Assembly: GCA_020852815.1 (NCBI GenBank)
Contig: JADZAN010000015.1
Span: 70,840 to 134,839, forward strand
DNA length: 64,000 nucleotides
Direction: 5' to 3'
Source: Gemmatimonadaceae bacterium
GTDB lineage: Bacteria > Gemmatimonadota > Gemmatimonadetes > Gemmatimonadales > Gemmatimonadaceae
Shown here: in pieces, positions 12,781-46,417 of the stretch
Layout of the letters: each line of letters begins with the position of its first letter
Numbering within the stretch: position 1 is the stretch's first letter
The notes under the pieces: model-generated
What the model was told of the DNA's origin: nothing
What the model saw: the letters and a program-made list of their open reading frames with translations, nothing else
Databases searched by the model: none
Made by a program: the position numbers and the translations under genes

Positions 12781-14582
12781 CGATGCCACAGGGGAGTTAC
12801 GACGCGGTCATCATCGGGGCGGGGCCGGTAGGGCTCAACATCGCCAAGGTGCTCAGCGACCGCGGCAAGCGCGTCCTCCTCCTCGAGGCGGGGCGCGCCT
12901 CCGGGCTGTCGTATGACGGATGGCTGTCCTACGTCGACACCTTTCGCTCGGCGCTCATCAAGGAGCCCAACTCGCCGTATCCGCCTAACGCGAACGCGCC
13001 CAGCACGTACGCGCAGGACGTGTACAACATGCAGAAGCACGTCCCCATTCTCTCCGGTTACCAGGTGGAGAAGGGGCCGCTGGCCTTTGGCTCGACGTAC
13101 CTGCGCTCGCTCGGCGGGACGTCGCTGCACTGGCTGGGGACGTGTCCGCGCATGGTGCCCAACGACTTTCGCATGAAGACGGCGTACGGCGTCGGGGTCG
13201 ACTGGCCGCTGACGTACGACGAGCTGCAACCGTACTACTGTCGCGCCGAGTGGGCGTTAGGCGTGTCGGCGAACAAGGAGGACCAGGAGCACTTCGGGAT
13301 GTGGTTTCCCGAGGACTACGACTATCCGATGGAGCGCATTCCCCAGAGCTATTCGGACCAGTTGTATGCCCGGGGGGCGGCGAGGGCCAAGGTGCAGTGG
13401 GCGGGGCGCGAGTACGGGATGACGGTGACGTCGCTTCCGCAGGCGCGCAACTCCATTCCGCGCGCCGGCTATCGTCCGCGGGGGGCGGTGGGGGCGCCGC
13501 ACGTGGGACAGCGGTGCGAGGGTAACGCCAGCTGCATCCCCATCTGTCCCGTGCAGGCCAAGTACAGCGCGCTCCGCACGCTGGGTGAGCTCGATGCGAA
13601 CTTCTACACGCTGGTGACGCAGGCCGTGGCCACGCGCCTCCTCATCGACGAGAGCGGGCGCATTGGCGGTGTGGAGTTCAAGCGCTACGCCAGCGAGTCG
13701 TCCAACCAGTCGCAGACGTACACCGCATACGGGACGTTGTACGTGGTGGCCGCGCACGCGGTGGAGGGCGCCAAGCTCCTGCTTGCGTCGGGGGCTGCCA
13801 ACTCGAGCGACCAGGTGGGGCGCAACCTGATGGACCATCCGTTCTTCCTCACGTGGGCGCTCAATCCCACGCCGGTGGGAGCGTTCCGCGGCCCCGGGCA
13901 GACGTCGGAGATCCCGTCGTTTCGCGACGGCCCGTTCCGCAACGAGTTCGCCGCCTTCCGCATCGACCTGGGGAACTGGGGGTGGGACGTTGCCACCTTT
14001 CCCCCCGGGAGCAACGTGAACGACGCAGTGGGGAAGAACGTCTTCGGCAAGGCGCTGCGACAGTCGCTGGAGCACCAGATCACCCGCCAGCTGCGCGTGG
14101 GCTACGTGGTGGAGCAGCTGCCGGAGGCGGGCAATCGCGTCACGATCGATCGCGAGTTCCTGGATCCGCTGGGGTGCTATCGCCCGGTGATTCACTACAA
14201 CGTGTCGGACTACACGCGCGAGGCGATGGTGCGGGCCAACGAGGTATCGAATGCGCTCTTCCGTGCCATGGGGATCGCCCCGCACGACATCAGGACGTCG
14301 CACACGCCGGACAACACCCCGGGGTACATGACCTACAAGGGGCGCGACGGCAAGGAGTACTCGTTAGGGTTCTACGGTTCGGGGCACCACATGGGGACGC
14401 ATCGCATGGGGGTGAGCCGCACCGACTCGGTGACCGACGCCAATTGCCGCAGTTGGGACCACGAGAACCTGTACGTGGTGGGATGCGGGAGCATGCCGAC
14501 CGTTGGCGCCTCCAACCCCACCATCACCGCCGTGGCCATCGCGCTCAAGGCGGCTGACCACATGCTCACCCAGCTCGGTTGA
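12777..14582 (+). CDS. GMC-family FAD oxidoreductase, catalytic subunit, Fe-S-type Cys motif
   Basis: ATG 12777 overlaps the upstream stop (ATGA). FAD fold YDAVIIGAGPVG..VLLLEAG. Cys-rich CEGNASCIPICPVQAKY. C-terminal GMC signatures GSGHHMGTHRMG and NLYVVGCGSMPT. Confidence 0.88.
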   Translation: MTMPQGSYDAVIIGAGPVGLNIAKVLSDRGKRVLLLEAGRASGLSYDGWLSYVDTFRSALIKEPNSPYPPNANAPSTYAQDVYNMQKHVPILSGYQVEKGPLAFGSTYLRSLGGTSLHWLGTCPRMVPNDFRMKTAYGVGVDWPLTYDELQPYYCRAEWALGVSANKEDQEHFGMWFPEDYDYPMERIPQSYSDQLYARGAARAKVQWAGREYGMTVTSLPQARNSIPRAGYRPRGAVGAPHVGQRCEGNASCIPICPVQAKYSALRTLGELDANFYTLVTQAVATRLLIDESGRIGGVEFKRYASESSNQSQTYTAYGTLYVVAAHAVEGAKLLLASGAANSSDQVGRNLMDHPFFLTWALNPTPVGAFRGPGQTSEIPSFRDGPFRNEFAAFRIDLGNWGWDVATFPPGSNVNDAVGKNVFGKALRQSLEHQITRQLRVGYVVEQLPEAGNRVTIDREFLDPLGCYRPVIHYNVSDYTREAMVRANEVSNALFRAMGIAPHDIRTSHTPDNTPGYMTYKGRDGKEYSLGFYGSGHHMGTHRMGVSRTDSVTDANCRSWDHENLYVVGCGSMPTVGASNPTITAVAIALKAADHMLTQLG

Positions 14583-34625: not shown

Positions 34626-36398
34626 ATGCGCCTCGTCACTCTCGACTGGATCATCGTCGCCATCTCGGTGGTGATCTCCTTCCTCCCGGCGGTCTTCTTC
34701 TACAAGCGCGCCGGTTCGAGCACCGAGGAGTTCTTCACCTCCGGGCGCGCCGCTCCGTGGTGGCTGGTCGGGATCTCGATGGTCGCGACGACCTTCAGCA
34801 CCGACACCCCCAACCTCGTGACCAACATGGTCCGCGAAAACGGGGTGGCCGACAACTGGCTGTGGTGGTCGTTTCTCCTGACGGGGATGATGACGGTCTT
34901 CTTCTTCGCGAAGCTGTGGCGCCGCTCGCGCGTGATGACCGACCTCGAGTTCTACGAGCTGCGCTACTCGGGCAAGGCCGCGACCTTCGTGCGCGGCTTC
35001 CGCGCCCTCTACCTCGGCCTCTTCTTCAACTGCGTCATCATGGCAACGGTGAACCTGGCCGCCGCCAAGATCGGCAACATCGTGTTGGGGCTCCCGATGT
35101 GGCAGACGCTGCTCTATGCCTCGATCATCACGATCTTCTTTGCCTCGGTGTCGGGGCTGTGGGGGGTACTGGTCACCGACTCCATCCAGTTCCTCATCAC
35201 GATGTCGTCCACCTTCGCGGTGGCGTACTTCGCGTTGCAGCAGCCCGAAGTTGGGGGGTTGGCCGGGCTCATGGCCAAGATCCCGCCGTCGCGCCTCAAC
35301 CTCCTCCCCGACTTCAGCAACAACTGGAACGTCGCGCTCTCGGTCATGATCATCCCCATCACCATCCAGTGGTGGTCGGTCTGGTATCCCGGCGCCGAGC
35401 CGGGGGGCGGGAGCTACATCGCCCAGCGCATGCTCGCCTCCAAGACAGAGAAGGACGCCGTCATCGGGACGATGTTCTTCAACGTGATGCACTACGCGCT
35501 GCGTCCGTGGCCGTGGATCATCGTGGCACTCGCCTCCACGCTCATCTTCCCGCAGCTCAGCGACATCGCCGCGTCGTACCCGTACGTGGACCCCACGCTC
35601 ATCGGGCACGACATGGCGTACCCGGCGATGCTCAAGTTCCTCCCCGCCGGCTTTCTTGGCGCGATGGTGGCCGGGATGCTCGCCGCCTATCGCTCCACCA
35701 TCGAGACGCACCTCAACTGGGGGACGTCGTACCTCGTCCACGACTTCTATCGCCGCTTCCTGCGCCCAGGCGAGACGGAGAAGCACTACGTCCTCGTGGG
35801 TCGCCTCGTCACCGCGGGGCTCATGATCTGCGCGGCGCTTCTGACCTTTGGGCTCAGCTCGGCCAAGGAGAGCTTCGACCTGATCCTGTCGATCGGCGCG
35901 GGCACCGGGCTGCTCTACATCCTGCGCTGGTTCTGGTGGCGCATCAATGCGTGGAGCGAGGTGGCGGCGATGGTGAGTTCGTTCGTCATCTCGGTCGGCT
36001 TCTTCATCGCCCGCAAGAACGGTGTGGCGCTGGGCAGCGAGGTCTCGCTGGTGATCACCATCGTCGCATCGACGGCGGTGTGGATGACGGTGACCTTCCT
36101 TGCGCCGCAGACCGACCGCGCGCGCCTCATCTCGTTCTACAAGCTGGTGCGCCCCGCGGGGCCGGGGTGGACGGATATCCGTCACGCCAGCGGCGACACG
36201 CGCTCGCCCGACTCGCTTACGCTGTCGCTCGTTGGGTGGATGCTCGGCATCACCTTTGTCTACTCGGCGCTCTTTGGCACCGGGAGCTTCCTGTACGGAC
36301 GCACCGCGACGGGGATGATGTGGCTGGGCGCCTTCCTCGTGTCGGGTTACTTCCTGCTCCGCCTGATGCCGCGCCTCTGGGCCGGATCGGAAGATTGA
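34626..36398 (+). CDS. Sodium:solute symporter (SSS) family transporter
   Basis: ATG 34626. Polytopic, with FFTSGRAAPWWLVGISMVATTFSTDTP typical of the SSF N-terminus. The upstream part of ORF 32559..36398 is antisense to GH20. Confidence 0.85.
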   Translation: MRLVTLDWIIVAISVVISFLPAVFFYKRAGSSTEEFFTSGRAAPWWLVGISMVATTFSTDTPNLVTNMVRENGVADNWLWWSFLLTGMMTVFFFAKLWRRSRVMTDLEFYELRYSGKAATFVRGFRALYLGLFFNCVIMATVNLAAAKIGNIVLGLPMWQTLLYASIITIFFASVSGLWGVLVTDSIQFLITMSSTFAVAYFALQQPEVGGLAGLMAKIPPSRLNLLPDFSNNWNVALSVMIIPITIQWWSVWYPGAEPGGGSYIAQRMLASKTEKDAVIGTMFFNVMHYALRPWPWIIVALASTLIFPQLSDIAASYPYVDPTLIGHDMAYPAMLKFLPAGFLGAMVAGMLAAYRSTIETHLNWGTSYLVHDFYRRFLRPGETEKHYVLVGRLVTAGLMICAALLTFGLSSAKESFDLILSIGAGTGLLYILRWFWWRINAWSEVAAMVSSFVISVGFFIARKNGVALGSEVSLVITIVASTAVWMTVTFLAPQTDRARLISFYKLVRPAGPGWTDIRHASGDTRSPDSLTLSLVGWMLGITFVYSALFGTGSFLYGRTATGMMWLGAFLVSGYFLLRLMPRLWAGSED

Positions 36399-36414
36399 GC
36401 GGCGCCGACGTCGC

Positions 36415-37272
36415 ATGACGCCTCCGCCCCGCGCCACCACACCGCTCGCCATCACGCCGCTTGCCACCACGCGCGCCGTGATCCTCGCGCGCGGCCTGGG
36501 CACGCGCATGCGACAGGCCGACCCGGGCGCCACGCTCGACGCCCAACAGGCCGCAGTGGCCGACGCCGGCGTGAAGGGGATGATCCCGATCGCTCGCCCC
36601 TTCCTCGACTACGTCATCAGCGCGCTCGCCGACGCCGGCATCACCGACGTCTGCCTCATCATCGGCCCCGAGCACCAGGCGGTGCGCGACTACTACGGCG
36701 CGCTCGCCATGTCGCGCGTGCGCGTGCACTTCGCCATACAGCACGAGCCGCGCGGCACCGCAGACGCCGTCGCCGCGGCGCGAGAGTTTGCCGCAGACGC
36801 GACGTTCCTCGTCCTCAACTCCGACAACTACTACCCGGTGGAGGCGTATCGCGCCCTAGCCGCCATCGCTGGCTCAGGGCTCGTCGGATTCGAACGCGAG
36901 GCGCTGGTCGCCGAGAGCAACATTCCCGAGGAGCGCATTCGCCGGTTTGCCTTGGTCGCCACCGATGCCACCGGCGCCCTCACCGAGATCGTGGAGAAGC
37001 CGGACGAGGCGACGTATGCGCGCATGTCGCAGCACGCGCTCGTCAGCATGAACCTGTGGTCCTTCTCGCCGGCGATCTTCGAGGCGTGCGCGCAGGTGCA
37101 ACCGTCGCCGCGCGGAGAGCTCGAGCTGCAGGATGCGGTGCGCATTGCGATGCATGAGCTGGGGGAGCGATTCACCGTCGTCCCGATGGCGGCCGGCGTC
37201 CTCGACCTCTCCAGCCGCCGCGATATTCCCGCGGTCGCGGCGCGACTCGACGGCGTGACGGTCGCGCTGTAG
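36415..37272 (+). CDS. Sugar-phosphate nucleotidyltransferase (NTP_transferase fold)
   Basis: AVILARGLGTRMR is a G-x-G-T-R-type signature. ..IIGPEHQAVRDYYG..HEPRGTADAV..VLNSDNYY. Lies 16 nt after the symporter stop. Confidence 0.8.
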   Translation: MTPPPRATTPLAITPLATTRAVILARGLGTRMRQADPGATLDAQQAAVADAGVKGMIPIARPFLDYVISALADAGITDVCLIIGPEHQAVRDYYGALAMSRVRVHFAIQHEPRGTADAVAAAREFAADATFLVLNSDNYYPVEAYRALAAIAGSGLVGFEREALVAESNIPEERIRRFALVATDATGALTEIVEKPDEATYARMSQHALVSMNLWSFSPAIFEACAQVQPSPRGELELQDAVRIAMHELGERFTVVPMAAGVLDLSSRRDIPAVAARLDGVTVAL

Positions 37273-37289
37273 CGGTGTAGCTTACGGCC

Positions 37290-38627
37290 ATGTCTCACGA
37301 TCGCGACCAGCTGCTGCGCGTGGGGATGTCGCCGCACCAGGCATCGGCCAAGGCGGCGATGCTCACGCAGTGCGACGCCGCGCTCGACGCCATCGGCGCC
37401 ACCAACCAGCGCCACTCCGTCTGGGTGCCCGGGCGCATCGAGATGCTTGGCAAGCACACGGACTATGCGGGCGGCCGTTCGCTCCTGTGCACGGTCGAAC
37501 GTGGCTTTGCCGTGCGCGTTGCGCTGCGCCACGATGCCACCATTCGCGCGGTGGACGTTGCCACGGGGAGCAGCTGCCAGACCGCGCTCGACCCCGAAAC
37601 GCGCGCTGAGCCGGGCGATTGGTCCAACTACGTTGCCACCGTGGCGCGCCGCCTGGCCCGCAACTTTCCGTCGGCACGGCTGGGCGTGGACCTCGCGTTC
37701 GCCTCGGACCTGCCCATCGCGGCGGGAATGAGTTCGTCGAGCGCGTTGATGATCGCCGTCTTCGTGGCCCTGGCCAAGAGCAACGACCTGCGCTCGAGCG
37801 AGGAGTTCCGCAACGCGATCTTCTCGCGTGAGGAGCTGGCGTCGTACCTGGGGACGGTGGAGAACGGGGAGTCGTTCCGCACGCTCGAGGGGGACGCGGG
37901 GGTGGGGACATTTGGCGGAAGCCAGGATCACACGGCGATCATGTGCGCCGAGGCGGGACATATCGTCCAGTACTCGTTCGCCCCCGTTAGGCGCGAGGCG
38001 GCCTACACGCTCCCGCCCACGCACACCTTTGTGGTGGGGGCGAGCGGCGTCCTGGCCGAGAAGACCGCCGGGGCGCGCGAGTCGTACAACCGCGCCGCGC
38101 GGCTGGTGCGGCACCTGCTCGCGCAGTGGAACGCGACCACTGGGCGCAGCGACGCCACGCTCGCCGACGCCGCGCGCAGCGGCGCCGACGCGCCCAATCG
38201 GCTGCGCGCGGTCGCGCAGGCGTCGGGAACGGCGGAGCTTCCCGCGTCGGCGTTAGGCAACCGACTGGAGCAGTTCCTCCTCGAGAGCTTCGAACTCATC
38301 CCGCAGGCCGCGGCGATCCTCGCACGCGGGAGCGTCCACGAACTCGGCTCCGTGGTGGACCGCTCGCAGGAGGCGGCGGAGCGCTGGCTGGGGAACCAGA
38401 TCCCCGAGACGGTGGCGTTGGCGCGTCTGGCGCGCCAGCTCGGCGCGACCGCGGCCTCGGCATTCGGCGCCGGCTTTGGCGGGAGTGTGTGGGCATTGGT
38501 TCCCGTGGGCGACGCGCGCGACTTCATGGTATCGTGGAGCGAGCACTACGCCGCGGAGTTCCCGTCAGCTGCCGAGCGTGCCGTTTTCTTCGCGTCACCG
38601 GCCGGGCCCGGGGCGCAGCAGTTCTGA
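37290..38627 (+). CDS. GHMP-family sugar-1-kinase (galactokinase-like, long form)
   Basis: Galactokinase signature VWVPGRIEMLGKHTDYAGG. GHMP ATP motif LPIAAGMSSSSALM. 445 aa. Lies 17 nt after the nucleotidyltransferase stop. Confidence 0.82.
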   Translation: MSHDRDQLLRVGMSPHQASAKAAMLTQCDAALDAIGATNQRHSVWVPGRIEMLGKHTDYAGGRSLLCTVERGFAVRVALRHDATIRAVDVATGSSCQTALDPETRAEPGDWSNYVATVARRLARNFPSARLGVDLAFASDLPIAAGMSSSSALMIAVFVALAKSNDLRSSEEFRNAIFSREELASYLGTVENGESFRTLEGDAGVGTFGGSQDHTAIMCAEAGHIVQYSFAPVRREAAYTLPPTHTFVVGASGVLAEKTAGARESYNRAARLVRHLLAQWNATTGRSDATLADAARSGADAPNRLRAVAQASGTAELPASALGNRLEQFLLESFELIPQAAAILARGSVHELGSVVDRSQEAAERWLGNQIPETVALARLARQLGATAASAFGAGFGGSVWALVPVGDARDFMVSWSEHYAAEFPSAAERAVFFASPAGPGAQQF

Positions 38628-38705
38628 GGAGTGCGCCGGGGGGGCGGGGGCACGATGTTAGGCGTGCGGGGGCTGGCTTTGGTGCGCCGTTCGTGACTCA
38701 CAAAT

Positions 38706-38802
38706 GCTTTTCACCACGGAGGCACGGAGGGGGAAGAGGTGAACGCGACAGTCGGCGCGCCAGACGTCCTCCTCCGTGCCTCCGTGGTAAAGCAGTTGAT
38801 CT
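38706..38802 (+). repeat. Repeat family 2, copy 1 (long inverted-repeat element)
   Basis: TTTCACCACGGAGGCACGGAGGGGGAAG, a variable core of about 35 nt, then CTCCTCCGTGCCTCCGTGGTAAAGCAGTTGATCT. The arms can form a stem of about 18 bp. Confidence 0.85.
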
Positions 38803-38821
38803 TTTTCTCGTAGCCGCGCGA

Positions 38822-38880
38822 CCTCGTCTTCCCGTCCCCAGCTTTCGCTGGGGCAGGCTTCTCGTCTTCTCGTCTTCTCC
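38822..38880 (+). repeat. Repeat family 1, locus C
   Basis: CCTCGTCTTCCCGT, hairpin CCCCAGCTTTCGCTGGGG (38836-38853), then CAGGCTTCTCGTCTTCTCGTCTTCTCC. Ends 3 nt before ATG 38884. Confidence 0.85.
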
Positions 38881-38883
38881 CAT

Positions 38884-40266
38884 ATGTCTGATCATCCGAC
38901 CCGCCGCGACCTCCTCAAGGGCGCGGCCCTCGCCTCCGCCGGCCTCGTGCTTGGCAGCAACGCCACCTTCGCACAGGGGGCGAGTGCTGCAGCTGACGGA
39001 ACCGTCGACCTCGTCACCGGGAGCACAACGGGCGCCTCGAGCATGGTGGGCGTTCCGTTCGAGAAGCGCGAGACGGTGCGCATCGCCATTGTCGGGACGG
39101 GGCTGCGGGGGCGGTCGGTGCTGCACGAGTTGCTCGGCGTTCCCAACGTGCGCATCACCGCGCTGTGCGACACCGTCCCCGCGAAGATCGACATGGCGGT
39201 GCAGCAGATGCGAAAGGGGGGGCACGACTACGAGCCGGCGCGCTTCAGCAATGGACCCGATGCCTTCCGCGACCTCGTGAAGCGCGACGACATCGACATC
39301 GTCTACACGGCCACCCCGTGGGAATTCCACGTCCCCGTGGTGCTGACGGCGATGGAAGCCGGGAAGCACGCCGCCACCGAGGTCCCCGCCGCCTATTCGC
39401 TCGAGGATTGCTGGAAGCTCGTCGACACGTCGGAGCGCACGCGGCGGCACTGCCTCATGATGGAGAACTGCAACTACGGCTACAACGAGTTGCTCGTGCT
39501 CCAGATGGTGAAGAGCGGCGCCTTTGGCGAGTTGAAGCACGCCGGCGCCGCGTACAACCACGACCTGCGCGCGATACTCTTCGAGAACCGCGACGAGGGA
39601 CTCTGGCGCCGGCGCCATCACACGCTGCGCAACAGCAACCTGTATCCCACGCACGGACTCGGCCCCGTCGCCTTCATGCTCGGCATCAACCGTGGCGACG
39701 CGTTCGACTACCTCGTGTCGATGAGCACGCCGGAGTTAGGGCTCTCCAAGTGGCGCAAGGACCACGTGCCCGCCAGCTCGCCAACATGGCAGGAGCAGTA
39801 CAAGACGGGCGACCTCAATACCTCGCTGGTCAAGACGGCCAAGGGGCGCACGATCCGCCTCGAGCACGACGTCGCCTCGCCGCGCCCCTACTCGCGCATC
39901 AACTCGATCCAGGGGACCAACGGCATCTTCGAGGACTACCCGCCGCGCATCTACATCGAGGGAACGGGCGAGGAAGATCGCTGGACGACGATCGACGCCT
40001 ACAAGGCAAGGTACGAGCACCCGCTGTGGCGCGAGCTGGGCGAGCAGGCGCGCAGCGGCGGGCACGGCGGCATGGACTACGTGATGGCCTATCGCCTGGT
40101 GCAATGCATGCGCGAGGGGCTTACGCCCGACTTCGACGTCTACGACGCGGCCGCGTGGTCCGCACCGGGCCCATTGAGCGAGATGTCAGTCGCCAAGGGA
40201 AGCGCGCCGATGAAGTTCCCCGACTTCACGCGCGGAAAGTGGCGCGAGGCGCGCGCATCGCTGTGA
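38884..40266 (+). CDS. Tat-exported Gfo/Idh/MocA-family NAD(P) oxidoreductase (GH109-like)
   Basis: Tat signal MSDHPTRRDLLKGAALASAGLVLG. Rossmann motif VRIAIVGTGLRGRS. ..AATEVPAA..CLMMENCNYGYNE. The length (460 aa) and Tat leader resemble GH109-type enzymes (recalled, unverified). Confidence 0.8.
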   Translation: MSDHPTRRDLLKGAALASAGLVLGSNATFAQGASAAADGTVDLVTGSTTGASSMVGVPFEKRETVRIAIVGTGLRGRSVLHELLGVPNVRITALCDTVPAKIDMAVQQMRKGGHDYEPARFSNGPDAFRDLVKRDDIDIVYTATPWEFHVPVVLTAMEAGKHAATEVPAAYSLEDCWKLVDTSERTRRHCLMMENCNYGYNELLVLQMVKSGAFGELKHAGAAYNHDLRAILFENRDEGLWRRRHHTLRNSNLYPTHGLGPVAFMLGINRGDAFDYLVSMSTPELGLSKWRKDHVPASSPTWQEQYKTGDLNTSLVKTAKGRTIRLEHDVASPRPYSRINSIQGTNGIFEDYPPRIYIEGTGEEDRWTTIDAYKARYEHPLWRELGEQARSGGHGGMDYVMAYRLVQCMREGLTPDFDVYDAAAWSAPGPLSEMSVAKGSAPMKFPDFTRGKWREARASL

Positions 40267-40275
40267 TTTGAACTG

Positions 40276-40379
40276 CCTTTCACCACGGAGGCACGGAGGG
40301 GGAAGTGCCGAGCGCGACCTTCAGCGCACCAAACGCACTCCTCCGTTCCTCCGTGCCTCCGTGGTAAAGCAGTTGATCT
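40276..40379 (+). repeat. Repeat family 2, copy 2
   Basis: Same arms as copy 1, with one extra TCCTCCGT unit in the right arm. Starts 10 nt after the stop at 40266. Same orientation as copy 1. Confidence 0.85.
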
Positions 40380-40427
40380 AGTTCTCTTCCGCAGCCTCCG
40401 CTCTCCCAAGTGCTTGGTACGCTCGAG

Positions 40428-41327
40428 TCAGACGTCACACGTCCGCACGCCCTCGGCGAGCGACGTCATTGGGTCGCGCTTCGGGATGAACTCCTGGCCA
40501 ATGAAGCCCGTGTACCCAAGGTCGGCGATGGCTTGCATGATGGCCGGGTAGTAGAGCTCCTGGCTCGCATCGATCTCGTTGCGCCCGGGGACCCCCGCCG
40601 TGTGGAAGTGGCCGATGGCGCCAAAGTTGTCACGGATGGTGCGGATGACATCGCCCTCCATGATCTGCATGTGGTAGATGTCGTACAGGAGCTTGAAGCG
40701 CGGGCTCCCCACCTGCCTGACGAGTTCGGCGCCCCACGGCGTGCGGTCGCACATGTAATCCTTGTGGTCGACCTTGGAGTTGAGCAGCTCCATGCACACC
40801 GTCACCCCCAGCCGCTCGGCCATCGGCGTGATGCGCTTGAGTCCGGCCACGCAGTTGGCCAACCCTTCACCGTCCGACATCCCGCCGCGGTTCCCCGAGA
40901 AGACGATCATGCTGGGGAGGCCGGCAGCTGCAACCAGCGGGAGGAGCCGCTCGCTCTCTGCCACCAGCCGATCGTGTTCGCCGGGACGGTTGAAGCCCAC
41001 GGGAATCGTGCTGGGGCCGTTGGCCATGGCGCACGTCAGGCCGTGCTGCTTTACCACTGGCCAGTCCTTCTCGCTCAACAGCTCCACCGAGCGCAACCCG
41101 ATGCGCTTGGCCGCCGCACACAGGTCGTCCAGCGGCATGCTGCTGTAGCACCACTGGCAAACGCTCTGCTTGAGGCGTCCGCCGCCGGCCAGCGGCTGCA
41201 ACGCGTGAAATGGATCGGTGGTCATGGCGACCAGCGGCGTTGCGGCAAGCGGGCCTGCCGCGAGCGCGCTCCCGGCGATCGCCGCGCCGCCGAGTGTCCT
41301 GAGGGCATCGCGTCGACTCTGCGACAT
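40428..41327 (-). CDS. Tat-exported xylose-isomerase-like TIM-barrel protein (hydroxypyruvate-isomerase-like)
   Basis: Tat signal MSQSRRDALRTLGGAAIAGSALA. ..VCMELLN..YDIYHMQIMEGD..HFHTAGVPGRNE is typical of the AP_endonuc_2 / Hyi-like fold. Confidence 0.78.
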   Translation of the reverse strand: MSQSRRDALRTLGGAAIAGSALAAGPLAATPLVAMTTDPFHALQPLAGGGRLKQSVCQWCYSSMPLDDLCAAAKRIGLRSVELLSEKDWPVVKQHGLTCAMANGPSTIPVGFNRPGEHDRLVAESERLLPLVAAAGLPSMIVFSGNRGGMSDGEGLANCVAGLKRITPMAERLGVTVCMELLNSKVDHKDYMCDRTPWGAELVRQVGSPRFKLLYDIYHMQIMEGDVIRTIRDNFGAIGHFHTAGVPGRNEIDASQELYYPAIMQAIADLGYTGFIGQEFIPKRDPMTSLAEGVRTCDV

Positions 41328-41330
41328 GGG

Positions 41331-42218
41331 CTAGAGCGCCGCCAGCGCCTTGTACGACGTCGTGATCGACGCCCACGGATCGGCCGGGTTGTCGTGCTCC
41401 ACGAAGTAGTGCTTGATCCCCGCCTCGCTGGCCTTCGCGAAGTACGAGGCAAACGGGATCTTGCCGCTCCCCACCTCGGTCATCGACCCATCGGCCTTCA
41501 TGTCTTTCACGTGCACGCAGGCGAAGCGCCCGGGGTACTTCGCGAAGTAGGCGAGCGGGTCCTTCCCTGCCTTGTTGGTCCAGAACAGGTCCATCTCGAA
41601 CTGCACGAGCTGCTTGTCGCAGCGCGCCAGCAACTCGTCGTACGGGACCTTGCCGTCGGTGAGCTGGAACTCGAAGTCGTGGTTGTGATACGCCATCTGG
41701 ATTCCGCGTTTGCGGGTCAGCGCGCCAGCCTCGTTGAGCTGGTCGGCCAGCTTGTGGTACTTGGCGATGGTGTCACGCTCGCGCACGTCCAGGTACGGCA
41801 TGATCGCGTACGTGTGCCCAATGGTCTGCAGCGCATCGAGCGCCGCGTTGGGATCCTTGAGGATGTCGCTCACCGGCATGTGAACCGCGGGCGAGGTGAG
41901 GCCGTTGGTCTTGAGCAGTTGGGCGATCTGCCTGGGGGTGCGCCCGAAGTAGCCGGCGAACTCGACCTCCTTGTAGCCGATTCCCGCGACCTTGGCCAGC
42001 GCTGCCTCGACCCCCTTCTCCATCTCGCCGCGAATGGTGTAGAGCTGCACGCCGCAGCGCTTCACCGCGACCGATGGGAGGAGGCCATCGACCAGCGCAC
42101 GCCGACCGTCAGCCGCAAGCGACGCCTGGGCCACGAGGTCGTTGAGCATGGGAGACGCGGCGAGGCCAAGGGCAGAGGCCGCGGTGATGCGCTTGAGGAC
42201 TTCTCGACGGGACGTCAC
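41331..42218 (-). CDS. Tat-exported sugar-phosphate isomerase/epimerase-like TIM-barrel protein
   Basis: I prefer GTG 42218 (V/MTSRREVLKRITAASALGLAA, a Tat motif) over the ORF-track TTG 42296. YKEVEFAGYF..MAYHNHDFEF..HVKD. The stop lies 3 nt before the next gene start. Confidence 0.75.
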   Translation of the reverse strand: MTSRREVLKRITAASALGLAASPMLNDLVAQASLAADGRRALVDGLLPSVAVKRCGVQLYTIRGEMEKGVEAALAKVAGIGYKEVEFAGYFGRTPRQIAQLLKTNGLTSPAVHMPVSDILKDPNAALDALQTIGHTYAIMPYLDVRERDTIAKYHKLADQLNEAGALTRKRGIQMAYHNHDFEFQLTDGKVPYDELLARCDKQLVQFEMDLFWTNKAGKDPLAYFAKYPGRFACVHVKDMKADGSMTEVGSGKIPFASYFAKASEAGIKHYFVEHDNPADPWASITTSYKALAAL

Positions 42219-42266
42219 GAAAGGGGCACGGAAAGGGGCACGGAAAGAGGCATGGAACGTGGCACG
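42219..42266. repeat. 12-nt tandem repeat x4 (GAAAGGGGCACG)
   Basis: GAAAGGGGCACG, GAAAGGGGCACG, GAAAGAGGCATG, GAACGTGGCACG, immediately upstream of the preferred start 42218. If TTG 42296 is used, this region would instead encode FRAPFRAPF. Confidence 0.8.
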
Positions 42267-42377
42267 GGAAGGGTGGAGTCGGGCGCCAGATGACAAAGGC
42301 GACGCCCCGGGTCAATCGTACCCCGGGACGTCGCCAAGGTCCAGCGAAATGGCTGCTGCTGCGGGCGCCGCCCGCCG

Positions 42378-43145
42378 CTACTGCGGGCGCTGCCCCTTGA
42401 GCATTGCCTGCGTCCGCTTGAGCTGCGGGTTGTCCGGCGACGCCTGCAGTCCCTTGTCGATTGCCGCCAGCGCGGCCACCGTGTCCCCCTTCTGCGCCAA
42501 CCCGATCGCGAGCTGCGACCAGGTCACCACCGACTTGGGGAAGTACTCGAGGTTCAGGTTGAGGAGCTTGATTGCGTCGTCGACGCGGCGGGCACGCGAC
42601 ATCTCCTCGGCCAGGCGCGGGAGCCCATCTTCCGAGAAGTCAAACTGCGCCTTTCCGTACGTCTTCTCGCGCAGCTCCTTGTAGCGCACGATGGCGCTGT
42701 CCGCGTCCTTCGCTTCCAGCGCGCCCAGCACCTCGGCGGCCAGCGTGCGCGGCCTTGAGGCGCCGCGATGGCACGTCTCGCACCCCACGCGCGTGCGCGC
42801 CGTGAAGGTGCGCCCGGACTGCGACAGGTACTTCTGGTTGATGTCCATCGTCATCTGGAGCATCTGTCGCGTGATCTTCTTCAGCTCCTTGTCGTCCGAG
42901 GCCGCGTCGAGCTGCTCCGGCATCTGTCCGGGGTTCTTCACCACGTGACAGTCATTGCAGCGCAACCCTAACGACGAGGTGAATCGCCGCATGACGTTGA
43001 GCAGCTCGGGGCGCGGAATGTCCTTGGGAAGGACCTGCAGGTTCTTGAACCCTTCCTGCGGTTGCGCCCCGGCAGCCGCCGGTACGGCCACCACCGGAAC
43101 GGCGACGCACAGCACGGCGAACGAACGACGAACGAATCGCAACAT
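42378..43145 (-). CDS. Dihaem c-type cytochrome (reaction-centre-cytochrome-like fold) with C-terminal TPR
   Basis: Signal peptide. Two CXXCH sites (CNDCH, CETCH). FKNLQVLPKDIP..MRRFTSSLGLRCNDCH is typical of PF02276-like cytochromes. The tail is TPR-like. Confidence 0.8.
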   Translation of the reverse strand: MLRFVRRSFAVLCVAVPVVAVPAAAGAQPQEGFKNLQVLPKDIPRPELLNVMRRFTSSLGLRCNDCHVVKNPGQMPEQLDAASDDKELKKITRQMLQMTMDINQKYLSQSGRTFTARTRVGCETCHRGASRPRTLAAEVLGALEAKDADSAIVRYKELREKTYGKAQFDFSEDGLPRLAEEMSRARRVDDAIKLLNLNLEYFPKSVVTWSQLAIGLAQKGDTVAALAAIDKGLQASPDNPQLKRTQAMLKGQRPQ

Positions 43146-43309
43146 GGCCGAACTCCTCGACTGATGGCCGCTTGAAATGAACGGCGGGCCGTACGCCGTG
43201 GGGGGAGGGGCGTCATTCTACCACCAGCGCGCCGCTGCGGCCAGTGAGGGCGCGGCGAGTGACACTACGCCCCGTGAGGGTGCGGCCGTCGACGCGGCGG
43301 CCACCCCTT

Positions 43310-45148
43310 CTAGCGAATCACCGGGCGCGTGTCTCCCGGGAGCAGCAGCTGGCGGTGCGCCCACCAGGGCGCGATCCCGTCCTTCATCACGCGCTCGTGA
43401 AAGTCGCGCAGGTTGAAGTCACGTCCCTCGCTCTCCCGCACGTCCTCGCGCAACGTCAGCAGCGCCCGCTTTCCCAGGAAGTAGCCCCCGTTGGTGGGGT
43501 CGTAGGCCACGCGCGACGCCTCCTGCATGGCCGCCGGACCGGGAACGTGCGCATTCTCCTCGAAGAACCGCGCCCCCCGTTCGATGCTCCACCCGTTGGC
43601 GTGCACATTGACGCTCACGATCAGGCGGCAGATGCGCGTCATCGACTCCGACAGCTGCGCCATTGCATAACGAGGATCGTCGGCGCGGAACCCCTGCTCC
43701 ACCACCAGGTGCTCGGCGTAGTGCGCCCATCCGTCCTGACCACTCGATGGCTGCGGGAACGGGTTCAACCCGATCCAGATGCGACGGATCTTGCCCGGCG
43801 TCTGCCGCATGAACATCGCATGGACGAAGTGTCCCGGCATCGCCTCGTGCGCCGACGTGATGGTGAGCGACGGATAGTTGAAGCGCTCGAGCCATTTGTC
43901 CTGCCGCTCGGCCGGCCACGATGGGTTGGCATCGGTGACGTAATAGATCGACCTGACCGGCGTCGTCTCCAGCGGCGGCGAGGCGTGCATCGACGCCAGC
44001 CCGATGTCGAACGGCTTGGAGGGCTCGACCATCACGCGGTCGGCGGTCGGGAGGCGCACCAGATCACGCGTCGTCACGAACTGCTGCAACTCGTCGACGA
44101 CGCGCCGCGCTGCGTCGACCAGCTCGCCGCGCCGGGGATGGTCGCGCAGCACGTCACCCCACACCGCCATGGCCTCCCGCGTCGAATCGACGGCGCGCGC
44201 TTTCTCCACGAAGAGCGCCTGCTCGGCCATGAGTTCGCGCTGGGCGATGGCGAGCATCGTGTCGGCCGGGACGTCGATCAGCTCCTCGGCGCGGTAGCGC
44301 GCCTCCACGTAGTCTCGCCCTAACGCCACGGTGCCGGTGGCGCGCGGGAGGATGGTCCGTTGATACTCGGCGATGAAGGCATCGATCGCCTCGCGCGCCT
44401 GGCGCGACTCCACCATCATCGCGTTCCACGTCTCGCCGCGCGGGGCATCGAGTGCCATCCCCAGGTCCTTCTCCAACATCCCGCTCGCCCCGCGGAACAT
44501 CGCCAGCCCACGCTCGGCGAGGATGTGCGGCGGGTTGCGAAGGTTGGCGCGTGCCGCGGCAAGGAGCGCGGGCACTTGCCGCAGCTTGGCCGTCACGCGC
44601 CGCATGCGCGCCTCGCTCGGGGCGCTCTCCATCGTCATCAGGTTGTGCACACCGTCGGCCAGCGCCGAGGCATAGACCATCGGGTTGCGCTGCCAGCTGC
44701 GCGCCACGTCGAGGTCCAGCACCCATCCGTCGATGACCCCACCCAGGATGCGGTGGTCCACGCGCTCGTCAGGCGTGAGCGAATCGACGGAGATGCGCGC
44801 CAGGCGCGCCTTCATCTCCCGGAACCAGGAGAGCTGGCGCGCGATGTTCGCTGCGGTGAAATCCTCCAGCCGGTCGTCGTGCTGGTGAATCCCGTTCCCC
44901 GCCGCGATGGAGGGATAGAAGGCCGACCATCCGTCGAGATACTCGTCGACGAGCGCCACGAAGTCGCGCGACGCCTTGGTCGAGGTGCCGTAGCCCGCGC
45001 TGCCATTCGCGCCGGAGCCGCCGTTGGCATCGCTGGCGCCGGTCGTTTCACGCCCGCTCCTCGTCCCCTCCCCGCGTCCACATCCCCCACAGGCCAGTGC
45101 GGCCGCCATTGTCACGGCCAGCACTCCCGCCCGTAGCGTTGTTCGCAT
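43310..45148 (-). CDS. DUF885-family protein (putative metallopeptidase-like), lipoprotein
   Basis: Signal peptide plus lipobox (AAALACGGC). Conserved ITSAHEAMPGHFVH motif of DUF885. The ATG directly abuts the stop of the upstream gene (45149-45151). Confidence 0.75.
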   Translation of the reverse strand: MRTTLRAGVLAVTMAAALACGGCGRGEGTRSGRETTGASDANGGSGANGSAGYGTSTKASRDFVALVDEYLDGWSAFYPSIAAGNGIHQHDDRLEDFTAANIARQLSWFREMKARLARISVDSLTPDERVDHRILGGVIDGWVLDLDVARSWQRNPMVYASALADGVHNLMTMESAPSEARMRRVTAKLRQVPALLAAARANLRNPPHILAERGLAMFRGASGMLEKDLGMALDAPRGETWNAMMVESRQAREAIDAFIAEYQRTILPRATGTVALGRDYVEARYRAEELIDVPADTMLAIAQRELMAEQALFVEKARAVDSTREAMAVWGDVLRDHPRRGELVDAARRVVDELQQFVTTRDLVRLPTADRVMVEPSKPFDIGLASMHASPPLETTPVRSIYYVTDANPSWPAERQDKWLERFNYPSLTITSAHEAMPGHFVHAMFMRQTPGKIRRIWIGLNPFPQPSSGQDGWAHYAEHLVVEQGFRADDPRYAMAQLSESMTRICRLIVSVNVHANGWSIERGARFFEENAHVPGPAAMQEASRVAYDPTNGGYFLGKRALLTLREDVRESEGRDFNLRDFHERVMKDGIAPWWAHRQLLLPGDTRPVIR

Positions 45149-46417
45149 CTAGAGTCCCTTCGTGGCCACGAGTTCGATGGCCTTCGCGAATGCGTCGATC
45201 TCGGCCACCGTCGTGTAGACGTTTGGCGTTACGCGAATGCACGAGAACTCGTTGGGGACGATCCGCGCCCGCACGTGGATGCGATGTCTGGTCATGAGGT
45301 GGTCCACGAGCTGGGGGCCGCTGACGCCGTCGATGCTCATCGCGCCTAACGCGCACGACTGCGCGTCGTCGTCGGGCGTGAGGAGCCGGACCTTGGGAAA
45401 CTGCGCCACGTGACGCGTCCACCGGCGCCGCAGGAAGCGGAGGCGCGCCGCCTTCCGCTCCGCGCCGATCGCCTCGTGGAAGTCGAGCGCCTCGGTGATC
45501 GGGTTGCGGATGTGCACGGGGAACGTCCCGATCGCCTCGAACTTGCGGATGTTGTCCTCCATCTCGGCGCTCGCGGCGAAGAGCGGCCAGATCGACTTGA
45601 TCTTCGACCGGCGCACATAGAGGAAACCGGTTCCCACCGGCGCCGAGAGCCACTTGTGCAGCGAGGTGCCGAAGTAGTCGCAGTCCAGGTCATCGCGCGT
45701 GAAGGGGAACTGCGCGAAGGCGTGCCCGCCATCCACCACGACCTCGATTCCCCGCGCGCGCGCCATGCGACAGATACGCTGCACGGGGGCGATCTGCCCA
45801 GTCGTGAAGTAGACGTGCGAGACGTGGAGGACCTTCGTGCGCGGCGTGATGGCTCCCTCGAAGCGCCGCACCAAGTCGTCCGGATCGGTGGCCGGCACGG
45901 GGAACGAGAAGAGCTTGAGGACGATCCCGTCGCGCCGCTCGCGCTGGCGCCACGCCGTGTGCATCGACGGGTAGTCCTGCGTGGTGGTGATCACCTCGTC
46001 GCCGCGCGACAGCGGCATCCCGAGCTGCACCGCCTCCAGCGCCTCGGTCGTGTTGCGGGTGACGGCCAACTCCTCGGCGTCACAGCCGAAGCGCGCCGCG
46101 AGCCGGCGCCGCACCACCTCGAACTCCGGATAGAGCATCTCGTCCACGTAGTGCGACGGGCTCATGTTCGTGAGCGTGAGGTAGTCGAGCTGTGCGCGCT
46201 GCACCGAACGCGGCGACGGGGCCACCGAGCCGTTGTTCAGGTTGATGTTGTTGCGGTCGACGGTGAACGCCTGTTGCACCTGGAACCAGAAATCCTCGTC
46301 ATCGGCAAGGTCGGCCGCGGGGCGCGACGGCTGGTAGGCGGCGAGGCGCTCGAGCCGCGCGGGGTCGAGCGTCGCGAGTGCGGCGCCGACGGAGGCGAGG
46401 AAGGTTCGGCGAAGCAT
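45149..46417 (-). CDS. Class-V aminotransferase-fold PLP enzyme with Tat-like leader (isopenicillin-N-epimerase/cysteine-desulfurase-like)
   Basis: MLRRTFLASVGAALATL has a twin-arginine motif. PLP-lysine region FGTSLHKWLSAPVGTGFLYV. Confidence 0.78.
   Translation of the reverse strand: MLRRTFLASVGAALATLDPARLERLAAYQPSRPAADLADDEDFWFQVQQAFTVDRNNINLNNGSVAPSPRSVQRAQLDYLTLTNMSPSHYVDEMLYPEFEVVRRRLAARFGCDAEELAVTRNTTEALEAVQLGMPLSRGDEVITTTQDYPSMHTAWRQRERRDGIVLKLFSFPVPATDPDDLVRRFEGAITPRTKVLHVSHVYFTTGQIAPVQRICRMARARGIEVVVDGGHAFAQFPFTRDDLDCDYFGTSLHKWLSAPVGTGFLYVRRSKIKSIWPLFAASAEMEDNIRKFEAIGTFPVHIRNPITEALDFHEAIGAERKAARLRFLRRRWTRHVAQFPKVRLLTPDDDAQSCALGAMSIDGVSGPQLVDHLMTRHRIHVRARIVPNEFSCIRVTPNVYTTVAEIDAFAKAIELVATKGL

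Follow-up and report, generated by a model that had tools for sequence, protein, structure and literature searches.

Glycosidases of family GH109 rely on a bound NAD cofactor which is recycled during catalysis, the hydride being given back in the same turnover, so that no external electron acceptor is needed. To our knowledge, only two members of this family have been characterised. A route by which glycosides are oxidised, eliminated, hydrated and reduced has also been described recently, with its environmental spread and electron bookkeeping still being mapped. The glycoside operon of Agrobacterium tumefaciens encodes an FAD-dependent GMC dehydrogenase (GlycDH) with a Tat small subunit, AtOGE, AtHYD and a Gfo reductase, and the roles of the catalytic and metal (Mn2+) residues of AtOGE have been reported (PMC10628242). 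In Bacteroides and Alistipes, BT2156-2159 (AL1-4) constitute a broad-specificity pathway in which 3-keto-beta-glucoside 1,2-lyase activity belongs to the TIM-barrel "sugar phosphate isomerase" (PMC8121099; preprint 10.1101/2024.03.25.586180). Cytochrome c is used as acceptor by FAD glucoside 3-dehydrogenases (PMC9915066; for LacABC and ThuAB, PMC8121099).

The window, meaning the whole stretch of 64,000 nucleotides analysed here, originates from a Gemmatimonadaceae genome with 68% GC and carries the features listed in Table 1. In the initial annotation, a Tat-exported oxidoreductase, two Tat-exported TIM-barrel proteins (TIM1 and TIM2) and a cytochrome were read as a single module. The analysis favours, with a probability of about 0.6, two functionally separate units that abut one another: a GH109 salvage operon (unit A) and a dehydrogenase-less 3-keto-glycoside cassette (unit B).

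Table 1. Features of the locus, in coordinates of the window.
Feature	Position	Strand	Length	Remarks
Tat-exported GH109-family oxidoreductase	38884..40266	+	460 aa	last gene of symporter/nucleotidyltransferase/GHMP-kinase unit
TIM1, Tat-exported xylose-isomerase-like TIM barrel	40428..41327	-	299 aa	
TIM2, Tat-exported TIM barrel, 3-keto-glycoside 1,2-lyase candidate	41331..42218	-		ORF possibly to TTG 42296
Dihaem c-type cytochrome + TPR, Sec-exported	42378..43145	-	255 aa	
SSS symporter, upstream partner of GH109	34626-36398	+		Pfam match
NTP_transferase, upstream partner of GH109	36415-37272	+		Pfam match; RmlA-type nucleotidyltransferase PDB matches
GHMP kinase, galactokinase/GalNAc-kinase-like	37290-38627	+		Pfam match; galactokinase PDB matches
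REP-like inverted-repeat element, copy 1	38702..38809	.		GHMP-GH109 spacer; repeat families D1, D2, inverted pair I2
REP-like inverted-repeat element, copy 2	40271..40386	.		convergent GH109/TIM1 spacer; D1, D2, inverted pair I5

All four open reading frames occur as first annotated, as do the Tat leaders on three of the proteins, the pair of CXXCH motifs and the TPR tail; only 3 nt separate the start of TIM1 from the stop of TIM2, again as described. GC3 values of 0.87-0.90 have been found in all four frames, a strong bias of the kind seen in real genes. Tat motifs can be read from the translations of the oxidoreductase (TRRDLLK), TIM1 (SRRDAL) and TIM2 (TSRREVLK), with the oxidoreductase leader scoring over the cut-off of TIGR01409 (E 7e-4) and under the gathering score of the Pfam TAT_signal model (E 0.0014). 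TIM2 was first called as a frame of 321 aa (41331-42296, minus strand) with a TTG start; since the start residue in relatives is the equivalent of the GTG at 42218 (VTSRRE...), a length of 295 aa is more likely, which widens the gap between the cytochrome and TIM2 genes from 81 to 159 nt. GH109 and TIM1 are convergent across a gap of 161 nt, an orientation which leaves no transcript shared by GH109 and the minus-strand unit. Arm-like sites of the REP-like element number about 35 across the whole genome.

Homology over the full length places the oxidoreductase in GH109, the N-acetylgalactosaminidase family, as a predicted NAD-dependent glycosidase, which is one of the two options named in the initial annotation. 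It matches the Akkermansia GH109 enzyme (PDB 6t2b; 347 bits, 1.1e-102, residues 49-455) and a second solved member (PDB 2ixa; 279 bits, 7.9e-82), and contains the GH109 C-terminal domain (PF21252, 2.8e-56, cut-off 27 bits) as well as a Rossmann match (PF01408, 1.2e-11) with the motif GTGLRG at residues 71-76. The protein also has a GGHGG loop (residue 392), to which the title of a 2020 paper by Teze et al. (cited in PMC11535203) assigns the catalytic acid-base. The match to GFOR amounts to 48 bits. An assignment as a BT2158-type glycoside 3-dehydrogenase was rejected, as the protein reaches 31.3 of the 750 bits required by the model for that family (NF058561, BT_2158_fam), matching it in the N-terminal Rossmann part only, compared with the 347 bits to a solved GH109 enzyme. 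For scale, Tat-Gfo proteins encoded next to TIM2 homologues have BT_2158_fam as their best match, at 423 and 165 bits.

Neighbourhood counts at 54 GH109-centred loci across Gemmatimonadota have revealed a GHMP sugar-1-kinase beside GH109 in 36 and a nucleotidyltransferase (NTP_transferase) in 28, always on the same strand, with the linkage of the three occurring in both gene orders and with a GHMP-GH109 spacer of 33 nt in one genome (G012). Among PDB entries, the kinase matches galactokinases as well as the human GalNAc kinase 2a2c (1e-12). TIM genes lie near GH109 in six of the 54 loci, always convergent and never on its strand, and a cytochrome in two, again never on the same strand. GH109 is self-contained and goes together with a predicted operon for amino-sugar salvage. 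The exported enzyme would oxidise C3 with its bound NAD+, eliminate the aglycone, hydrate the product and return the hydride in one active site, a complete cycle for which neither the TIM enzymes nor the cytochrome would be required. A sugar of probable hexosamine type would be freed in the periplasm; the SSS symporter would bring it into the cell, where the GHMP kinase would phosphorylate C1 and the nucleotidyltransferase would activate the sugar. The adjacency of GH109 and TIM1 is kept in about 11 related genomes, two of them without kinase genes nearby, and given this adjacency there may be some coupling between the two genes.

On the minus strand, TIM2 shares similarity with 8tct (6e-25), 8tcd (7e-23) and AtOGE (8bvk; 9.4e-21, residues 82-314). 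The AtOGE residues H132, H134, E161, D163, H189 and E233 are all identical in the alignment (H204, H206, E234, D236, H262 and E300 in ORF numbering), and these positions are invariant in 92 TIM2 homologues, except for a Q at E161 in nine. Among 53 TIM2-centred loci, neighbours include a GMC dehydrogenase (30), the small subunit (21), a Tat-Gfo protein (12), DUF1080 (PF06439; seven) and GH109 (four), with a gene order elsewhere in which the Tat small subunit and the FAD GMC dehydrogenase precede the TIM2 homologue. TIM2 is a candidate metal-dependent 3-keto-glycoside 1,2-lyase (beta-eliminase) of the AtOGE/BT2156 type, and the earlier assignment of this barrel to the lyase family of oxidation/elimination/hydration routes is borne out by the AtOGE homology and the retained residues. 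TIM1 matches PF01261 (3e-25) and falls under the cut-offs for hydroxypyruvate isomerase and 2-oxo-tetronate isomerase (TIGR03234, 95.6 vs 353; NF043033, 97.1 vs 325); judged by these scores, it is a relative and not a member of those families. Its AF2 model (pLDDT 82.7) has top Foldseek matches to 3ngf, 1k77, ketose 3-epimerases and YcjR (6wn6). TIM1 is the same-strand downstream neighbour of TIM2 in 16 of 53 loci, and a 55% orthologue lies directly 3' of a c-type cytochrome gene in a Hymenobacter cluster. Placed in the hydroxypyruvate-isomerase/ketose-epimerase/YcjR branch, it probably acts as a 3-keto-sugar isomerase or epimerase, or as a hydratase.

The cytochrome carries haem motifs at residues 63 (CNDCH) and 122 (CETCH), and both CXXCH motifs, together with Met52 and Met95, are invariant in 40 homologues. 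Residues 34-132 place it among non-photosynthetic PufC-like proteins (NF033196, 99.6 bits, cut-off 70; PF02276, 6e-11), and the C-terminal portion of about 118 residues is modelled as a three-repeat TPR. Photosynthetic PufC itself was rejected as an identification, there being two haem sites instead of four and 46.8 bits against a cut-off of 150 for NF040706. Of 80 loci, 16 (12 of the 55 with full flanks) have the gene immediately preceding a same-strand TIM2, and this pairing is limited to one Gemmatimonadaceae clade. The TIM2 proteins linked to the cytochrome likewise form one clade (support 94), with sister clades showing the order small subunit-GMC-TIM2-TIM1. In annotated clusters of Sphingomonas and Hymenobacter, from two other phyla, genes resembling TIM1 and TIM2 also have a c-type cytochrome gene as neighbour. 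The earlier suggestion of an electron sink for C3 oxidation is a reasonable one, and the protein may take up the electrons released by a glycoside 3-dehydrogenase in the periplasm; the accompanying claim that such a partner falls outside known versions of the pathway is wrong, as shown by these clusters and by published systems (PMC9915066; PMC8121099).

Between 40428 and 43145, neither a GMC catalytic subunit nor a Gluconate_2-dh3 Tat small subunit, as in a LacABC-like arrangement, has been found, and the sole oxidoreductase near TIM2 in the window is the convergent GH109. In two relatives (G001 and G035), the GMC and small subunit genes lie between the cytochrome and TIM2, while two others (G008 and G011) show the order Tat-Gfo-cytochrome-TIM2-TIM1. 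The GMC type of about 60% identity which sister genomes keep elsewhere is absent from this genome, where the best match is 51%, and the dehydrogenase genes appear to have been lost from its locus. At least nine other genomes also retain a cytochrome-TIM2 cassette without a dehydrogenase. The minus-strand unit looks like a dehydrogenase-less form of a known pathway, for which cytochrome c acceptors of glycoside 3-dehydrogenases were already known. Unit B would represent the post-oxidation half of the periplasmic 3-keto-glycoside route: a glycoside 3-dehydrogenase supplied from elsewhere in the genome, possibly from a GMC-GMC-small subunit arrangement on contig C24, would make the 3-keto-glycoside, with the dihaem cytochrome removing its electrons; TIM2 would cleave the product as a metal-dependent 1,2-lyase, into aglycone and 2-hydroxy-3-keto-glycal, and the resulting 3-keto sugar would be isomerised, epimerised or hydrated by TIM1.

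The single module originally proposed, in which C3 oxidation by the Tat Gfo/Idh/MocA protein is followed by cleavage and hydration by the TIM enzymes, with the cytochrome re-oxidising tightly bound NAD(P)H, draws on the adjacency of all four genes in about 11 related genomes, on the homology of TIM2 to a 3-keto-glycoside lyase and on the different Tat-Gfo gene directly upstream of the cytochrome in G008 and G011. Cytochrome recycling of bound NAD in periplasmic Gfo-type 3-dehydrogenases has also been left open (preprint 10.1101/2024.03.25.586180). Against this stand the placement of the oxidoreductase in GH109 instead of the 3-dehydrogenase family, the hydride that GH109 keeps and returns, its convergent orientation and its same-strand partnership with the kinase and nucleotidyltransferase. 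We know of no precedent for direct hydride-to-haem transfer without a flavin. Synteny in related genomes, the check named in the initial annotation, fails beyond the closest clade, with TIM genes at six of 54 GH109 loci and GH109 at four of 53 TIM2 loci, and the single module is very improbable. Slightly less credible still is a decaying remnant, its function lost along with the dehydrogenase genes; the empty locus and the missing GMC type would fit such a state, but all three minus-strand frames are uninterrupted and strongly codon-biased, the catalytic residues of TIM2 and the haem motifs are preserved, and the same cassette is retained in other genomes.

The cytochrome could also be a general periplasmic carrier, placed upstream of TIM2 by descent and with no specific link to glycoside oxidation. 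The other 64 of its 80 homologues are solitary in unrelated neighbourhoods (TonB receptor, Rieske, helicase, TPP enzyme) in Gemmatimonadota, Acidobacteriota and other phyla, and sugar metabolism is not the dedicated role of the family overall; a gap of 159 nt separates the gene from TIM2 in the window, and close relatives (L054, L055 and L057) have DUF885-TIM2 without a cytochrome. This reading is nonetheless unlikely, given that the pairing spans several genera and 41-88% cytochrome identity, that the two genes invariably share a strand and often overlap at their stop and start codons, that dehydrogenase genes of two cofactor types occur right beside the cytochrome, and that non-homologous c-type cytochromes occupy the corresponding position in clusters from other phyla. 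A bolder and more doubtful proposal is that the TPR-docked dihaem cytochrome is the dedicated partner of both FAD GMC/small-subunit (as in G001 and G035) and bound-NAD Tat-Gfo 3-dehydrogenases (as in G008 and G011). If so, it would provide, for the NAD type, the cofactor recycling left open by the BT2158/AL3 work, and a redox-neutral glycoside cleavage would become an energy-yielding oxidation.

The reading as two abutting units offers a cautionary case, with chemically similar systems lying side by side without forming one system. It shows a candidate Gemmatimonadaceae eliminase travelling with a TPR-fused PufC-like dihaem cytochrome while dehydrogenases of two cofactor types come and go, and the tie between Gemmatimonadota GH109 and a sugar-1-kinase/nucleotidyltransferase salvage operon gives this family a testable substrate context.

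When compared to the A. tumefaciens operon, the locus shares the AtOGE homologue, and the small subunit and GMC genes precede TIM2 homologues elsewhere; the window locus itself is without GMC, small subunit and Gfo reductase, its TIM1 is a mature protein of about 28 kDa from the Hyi/epimerase branch, unlike the 41-kDa AtHYD, and all three minus-strand proteins carry export signals. BT2156-2159 follow the same chemical logic, and some TIM2 homologues adjoin BT2158-like Tat-Gfo and DUF1080 genes, whereas in the window the Gfo/Idh/MocA protein is GH109 and not BT2158-like, and the locus includes a cytochrome and lacks DUF1080. A c-type cytochrome encoded with 3-keto-glycoside genes is shared with Caulobacter LacABC and Rhizobium radiobacter G3DH (PMC8121099; PMC9915066), and G001 and G035 hold cytochrome, small subunit and GMC in a single operon; the dehydrogenase subunits of these systems are absent from the window locus, and the small monohaem class I cytochrome of R. 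radiobacter contrasts with a protein in which three TPR repeats are fused to a dihaem PufC-like domain. Homology to tetrahaem PufC and its non-photosynthetic kin (NF033196) is seen in the haem-binding segments; from PufC proper the window protein differs in its two haems, its TPR tail, a score below the PufC cut-off and surroundings free of photosynthesis genes. The oxidoreductase, a predicted glycosidase, resembles Elizabethkingia NagA (2ixa) and the Akkermansia muciniphila enzyme (6t2b) in full-length homology, PF21252, Rossmann motif, GGHGG loop and Tat leader, and is distinguished from them by its position within a Gemmatimonadota-specific operon of symporter, sugar-1-kinase and nucleotidyltransferase.

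All four open reading frames of the initial annotation have been confirmed at their coordinates, and their GC3 of 0.87-0.90, in a genome with a GC content of ~68%, is a bias typical of real genes. The oxidoreductase, the two Tat TIM-barrel proteins (TIM1 and TIM2) and the dihaem cytochrome c-TPR had been read as a single oxidative glycoside-processing module, with the cytochrome re-oxidising a bound cofactor. The ideas concerning the TIM barrels and the cytochrome have stood, as they describe a real and known pathway, while the oxidoreductase could not be retained as a member of it. The oxidoreductase gene and TIM1 are convergent, with 161 nt between them, and 3 nt separate the TIM2 stop from the TIM1 start. 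For TIM2, a length of 295 aa from a GTG at 42218 is more likely, since the starts in relatives match the equivalent of this codon; immediately upstream of it lies a 12-nt tandem repeat with TTCCGTGCCCCT-like units on the coding strand. A scan of 38400-43500, uninformative at such high GC, detected nothing promoter-like and a single terminator-like site, within TIM2 and below the count in shuffles, and an Rfam scan of the entire window gave no matches.

Features of the locus, related gene clusters in the same genome (contigs C18 to C28) and compared loci in related genomes (L numbers)
Feature	Location	Strand	Remarks
GMC operon	12795-14576
Nucleotidyltransferase, GHMP kinase, Tat-GH109 unit	34626-40266
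Inverted-repeat element, two copies	38702-38809; 40271-40386		same orientation
Oxidoreductase (GH109)	38884-40266	+	460 aa; N-terminus MSDHPTRRDLLK; GTGLRG Rossmann motif
TIM1	40428-41327	-	299 aa; N-terminus MSQSRRDAL
TIM2	41331-42296	-	VTSRREVLK present
Tandem repeat	42219-42266
Cytochrome	42378-43145	-	255 aa; Sec-type leader; CNDCH at residue 63, CETCH at 122
Class V aminotransferase-fold and DUF885 genes	43310-46417	-
GMC-GMC-Tat small subunit	C24 176856-181161		tandem GMCs; 51% identity to operon-type GMC
PRK06148-matching protein, copy	C24 182687-185767
Further GMC	C18
DUF1080, BT2158-like Tat-Gfo, cytoplasmic Gfo	C28 110518-121683
Gfo and TIM barrel	C23 20475-22794
Tat-Gfo-cytochrome-TIM2-TIM1	L056 122-4214 (G008); L215 2418-5119 (G011)		one strand
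~1030-aa protein	L217 9672-12785		equivalents in L218, L225, L231, L238

By its sequence, the oxidoreductase is placed in the GH109 family. It matches the Pfam GH109 C-terminal domain at 2.8e-56 and aligns over the full length with two solved GH109 enzymes (6t2b, 347 bits; 2ixa, 279 bits), the next structures being far weaker (glucose-fructose oxidoreductase, 48 bits; the C-glycoside enzyme DgpA, 40 bits), and it reaches 31 bits under the NCBI curated glycoside 3-dehydrogenase model BT_2158_fam, for which the cut-off is 750. In GH109 enzymes the hydride removed from C3 goes back at the end of each turnover, and an external acceptor is therefore unnecessary. The protein also contains a GGHGG loop, which the title of a study cited in PMC11535203 gives as the seat of the GH109 catalytic acid/base (Teze et al. 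2020). Characterised members of the family are N-acetylgalactosaminidases that use NAD+ and act via elimination and reduction (PMC11535203).

Neighbourhoods were compared in three sets of ~80 loci, one genome per species, centred on TIM2, GH109 and the cytochrome, with neighbours counted within 4 kb and only at loci with at least 2.5 kb on each side. The cytochrome set was seeded by a 5-sequence alignment, as a single sequence gave only 3 loci and a 13-sequence alignment was too divergent. Around GH109, a GHMP kinase (36/54) and a nucleotidyltransferase (28/54) were frequent, always on the same strand and in either gene order, a partnership that persists to ~60% identity across Gemmatimonadota; TIM1 (6/54), TIM2 (5/54) and the cytochrome (2/54) were rare and never on its strand. 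The TIM2 set gave the same picture for GH109 (4/53, never same strand), and a whole-genome search of relatives found the full four-gene arrangement only in the window's own genus. Taken together, the neighbour counts and this genus-limited arrangement indicate that the four genes are not syntenic in relatives outside it, which by the initial annotation's own criterion speaks against their reading as one module.

The genes ahead of GH109 in the window encode an SSS symporter, an RmlA-like nucleotidyltransferase and a GHMP kinase; the kinase is structurally related to galactokinases and to human N-acetylgalactosamine kinase, and a divergent GH20 hexosaminidase gene lies upstream. We infer a coherent route in which a hexosamine-type sugar would be released in the periplasm, imported, phosphorylated at the anomeric position and finally activated to an NDP-sugar. 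The nucleotidyltransferase, GHMP kinase and Tat-GH109 genes, kept in many Gemmatimonadota genomes in either order and preceded in the window by the symporter, resemble a pathway of release and salvage leading to an NDP-(amino)sugar, and this conserved unit places a GH family of which little has been characterised in a substrate context. The 256-nt spacer 5' of GH109 (in the related genome G012 just 33 nt separate the kinase gene from GH109) and the 161-nt spacer 3' of it each hold one ~100-nt inverted-repeat element, the two copies flanking the gene with 84% identity over 85 nt. The arms are CACCACGGAGGCACGGAGG, with exact-type arms at only ~9 genomic sites and looser variants (CACGGAGGCACGGAGG) at ~35, contig ends among them; a GGCACGGA core is common to this element and the tandem repeat upstream of TIM2.

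On the opposite strand, TIM2 is homologous to AtOGE, the O-glycoside beta-eliminase of Agrobacterium, matching its structure (PDB 8bvk) at 9e-21 and three more "sugar phosphate isomerase" structures at 6e-25 to 1e-22. PDB 8TCD and 8TCT, which are probably the AL1/BT1 lyases, are among these. The alignment shows identity at 6/6 of the catalytic and metal positions of AtOGE, which comprise the catalytic His134, the ligands His132, Asp163, His189 and Glu233, and Glu161 of an alternative site (PMC10628242); all six are invariant across 92 TIM2 homologues, except for Gln at the Glu161 position in 9. TIM1 shows no detectable pairwise similarity to TIM2, and recent duplication has thus been ruled out. 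Its sequence and a confident AlphaFold model (pLDDT 82.7) group it with hydroxypyruvate-isomerase-like proteins, ketose 3-epimerases and the 3-keto-D-glucoside 4-epimerase YcjR, a branch that performs enolisation chemistry adjacent to a carbonyl, and it scores well under all equivalog cut-offs. TIM1 is a plausible candidate for a 3-keto-sugar isomerase or epimerase, or for a hydratase of the glycal product. The cytochrome passes the NCBI model for non-photosynthetic relatives of reaction-centre cytochromes (99.6 bits, cut-off 70) and falls below the PufC model cut-off (46.8 against 150). Both of its haem motifs, each with an upstream Met, are invariant in 40 homologues, and its last ~118 residues are modelled as three TPR repeats. 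With Foldseek the TPR half alone was matched, the haem half, modelled without haem, having no structural matches.

The neighbours of TIM2 are those of the 3-keto-glycoside pathway: a FAD GMC oxidoreductase (30/53, 29 on the same strand), the Gluconate_2-dh3 Tat small subunit (21/53), TIM1 (16/53), a Tat-Gfo enzyme (12/53; best NCBIfam match the BT2158 family, 423 and 165 bits), a larger TIM barrel (11/53) and a PF06439 3-keto-disaccharide hydrolase (7/53), the cytochrome being rare (2/53). TIM2 was the frequent neighbour of the cytochrome (12/55, all same strand), while GMC (3/55), small subunit (2/55) and GH109 (2/55) were rare; other homologues of the cytochrome occur in unrelated settings, for example with a TonB receptor, a Rieske protein, a helicase or a TPP enzyme. 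In the TIM2 tree, the cytochrome-linked proteins form a single Gemmatimonadaceae clade (support 94), whose sister clades carry small subunit-GMC-TIM2-TIM1 operons. Four layouts occur within the clade: cytochrome-TIM2 only (nine genomes, with a stop/start overlap in several), cytochrome-TIM2-TIM1 (the window and its nearest relatives), cytochrome-small subunit-GMC-TIM2(-TIM1) (G001, G035) and Tat-Gfo-cytochrome-TIM2-TIM1 (G008, G011). In the last, a candidate NAD-type glycoside 3-dehydrogenase, with BT_2158_fam as best NCBIfam match (165 bits), directly adjoins the cytochrome. Three close relatives have DUF885-TIM2-TIM1 without the cytochrome. The aminotransferase-fold and DUF885 genes lie 164 nt upstream of the cytochrome on its strand; several relatives (L216-L218) preserve this gene order, and the minus-strand transcript may therefore extend beyond three genes. 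A ~1030-aa protein convergent on the cytochrome-TIM2 cassette has also been observed in several genomes (NCBIfam PRK06148, 1282 bits; C-terminal part matching class III aminotransferase models), with a copy near the C24 GMC cluster of the window's own genome.

The simplest reading of these layouts is that the cytochrome and the eliminase both serve a glycoside 3-dehydrogenase whose genes are gained and lost at this position. The dehydrogenase genes could have been inserted independently; parsimony favours their loss in the window's lineage, because the sister clades have small subunit and GMC. Other 3-keto-glycoside pathway gene families are scattered over the window's own genome, where the C24 GMC pair is a candidate dehydrogenase supplier and the GMC operon of the window has only 25% identity. 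The C24 pair was rejected as the relocated operon dehydrogenase: it is not an orthologue, since sister genomes have it together with a separate ~60% type. That type lies in an extra cluster (L292-L295, in G010, G005, G001 and G003) whose GMC has 60% identity to the operon type and which also encodes a small subunit and a Tat TIM barrel with 25% identity to TIM2, a cluster kept by sister genomes and absent from the window's genome.

In Agrobacterium, AtOGE and a second TIM enzyme, AtHYD, share an operon with a Gfo reductase and with a FAD GMC glycoside dehydrogenase plus its Tat small subunit (PMC10628242). Bacteroides and Alistipes carry out the same reactions with a Tat-Gfo enzyme that binds NAD tightly, a TIM 3-keto-beta-glucoside 1,2-lyase and, as lyase/hydratase, a DUF1080 protein (preprint 10.1101/2024.03.25.586180; PMC8121099). 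The initial annotation had placed a dedicated cytochrome c-TPR partner outside the textbook versions of these pathways, a view now refuted: for FAD enzymes a cytochrome c acceptor is already established, LacABC and ThuAB having been termed cytochrome c-dependent (PMC8121099) and a monohaem cytochrome of Rhizobium radiobacter having been described as the acceptor of glucoside 3-dehydrogenase (PMC9915066). GMC, small subunit and DUF1080 genes likewise occur together with several TIM barrels, Gfo enzymes and a c-type cytochrome in two annotated plasmid clusters, from Sphingomonas parapaucimobilis and Hymenobacter volaticus; in Hymenobacter the cytochrome gene directly precedes a 55% TIM1 orthologue, after which comes a TIM2 paralogue. 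A cytochrome as such is therefore no novelty. That the present cytochrome works with Tat-Gfo glycoside 3-dehydrogenases in addition to the FAD enzymes is improbable, at roughly one chance in ten, given a single gene order shared by two sister genomes (G008, G011); the recycling of bound NAD by cytochromes has been raised only as a possibility (preprint 10.1101/2024.03.25.586180). Compared with the known cytochrome-linked systems, the window differs in that its cytochrome is dihaem, PufC-like and TPR-fused, and in that its locus is without a dehydrogenase.
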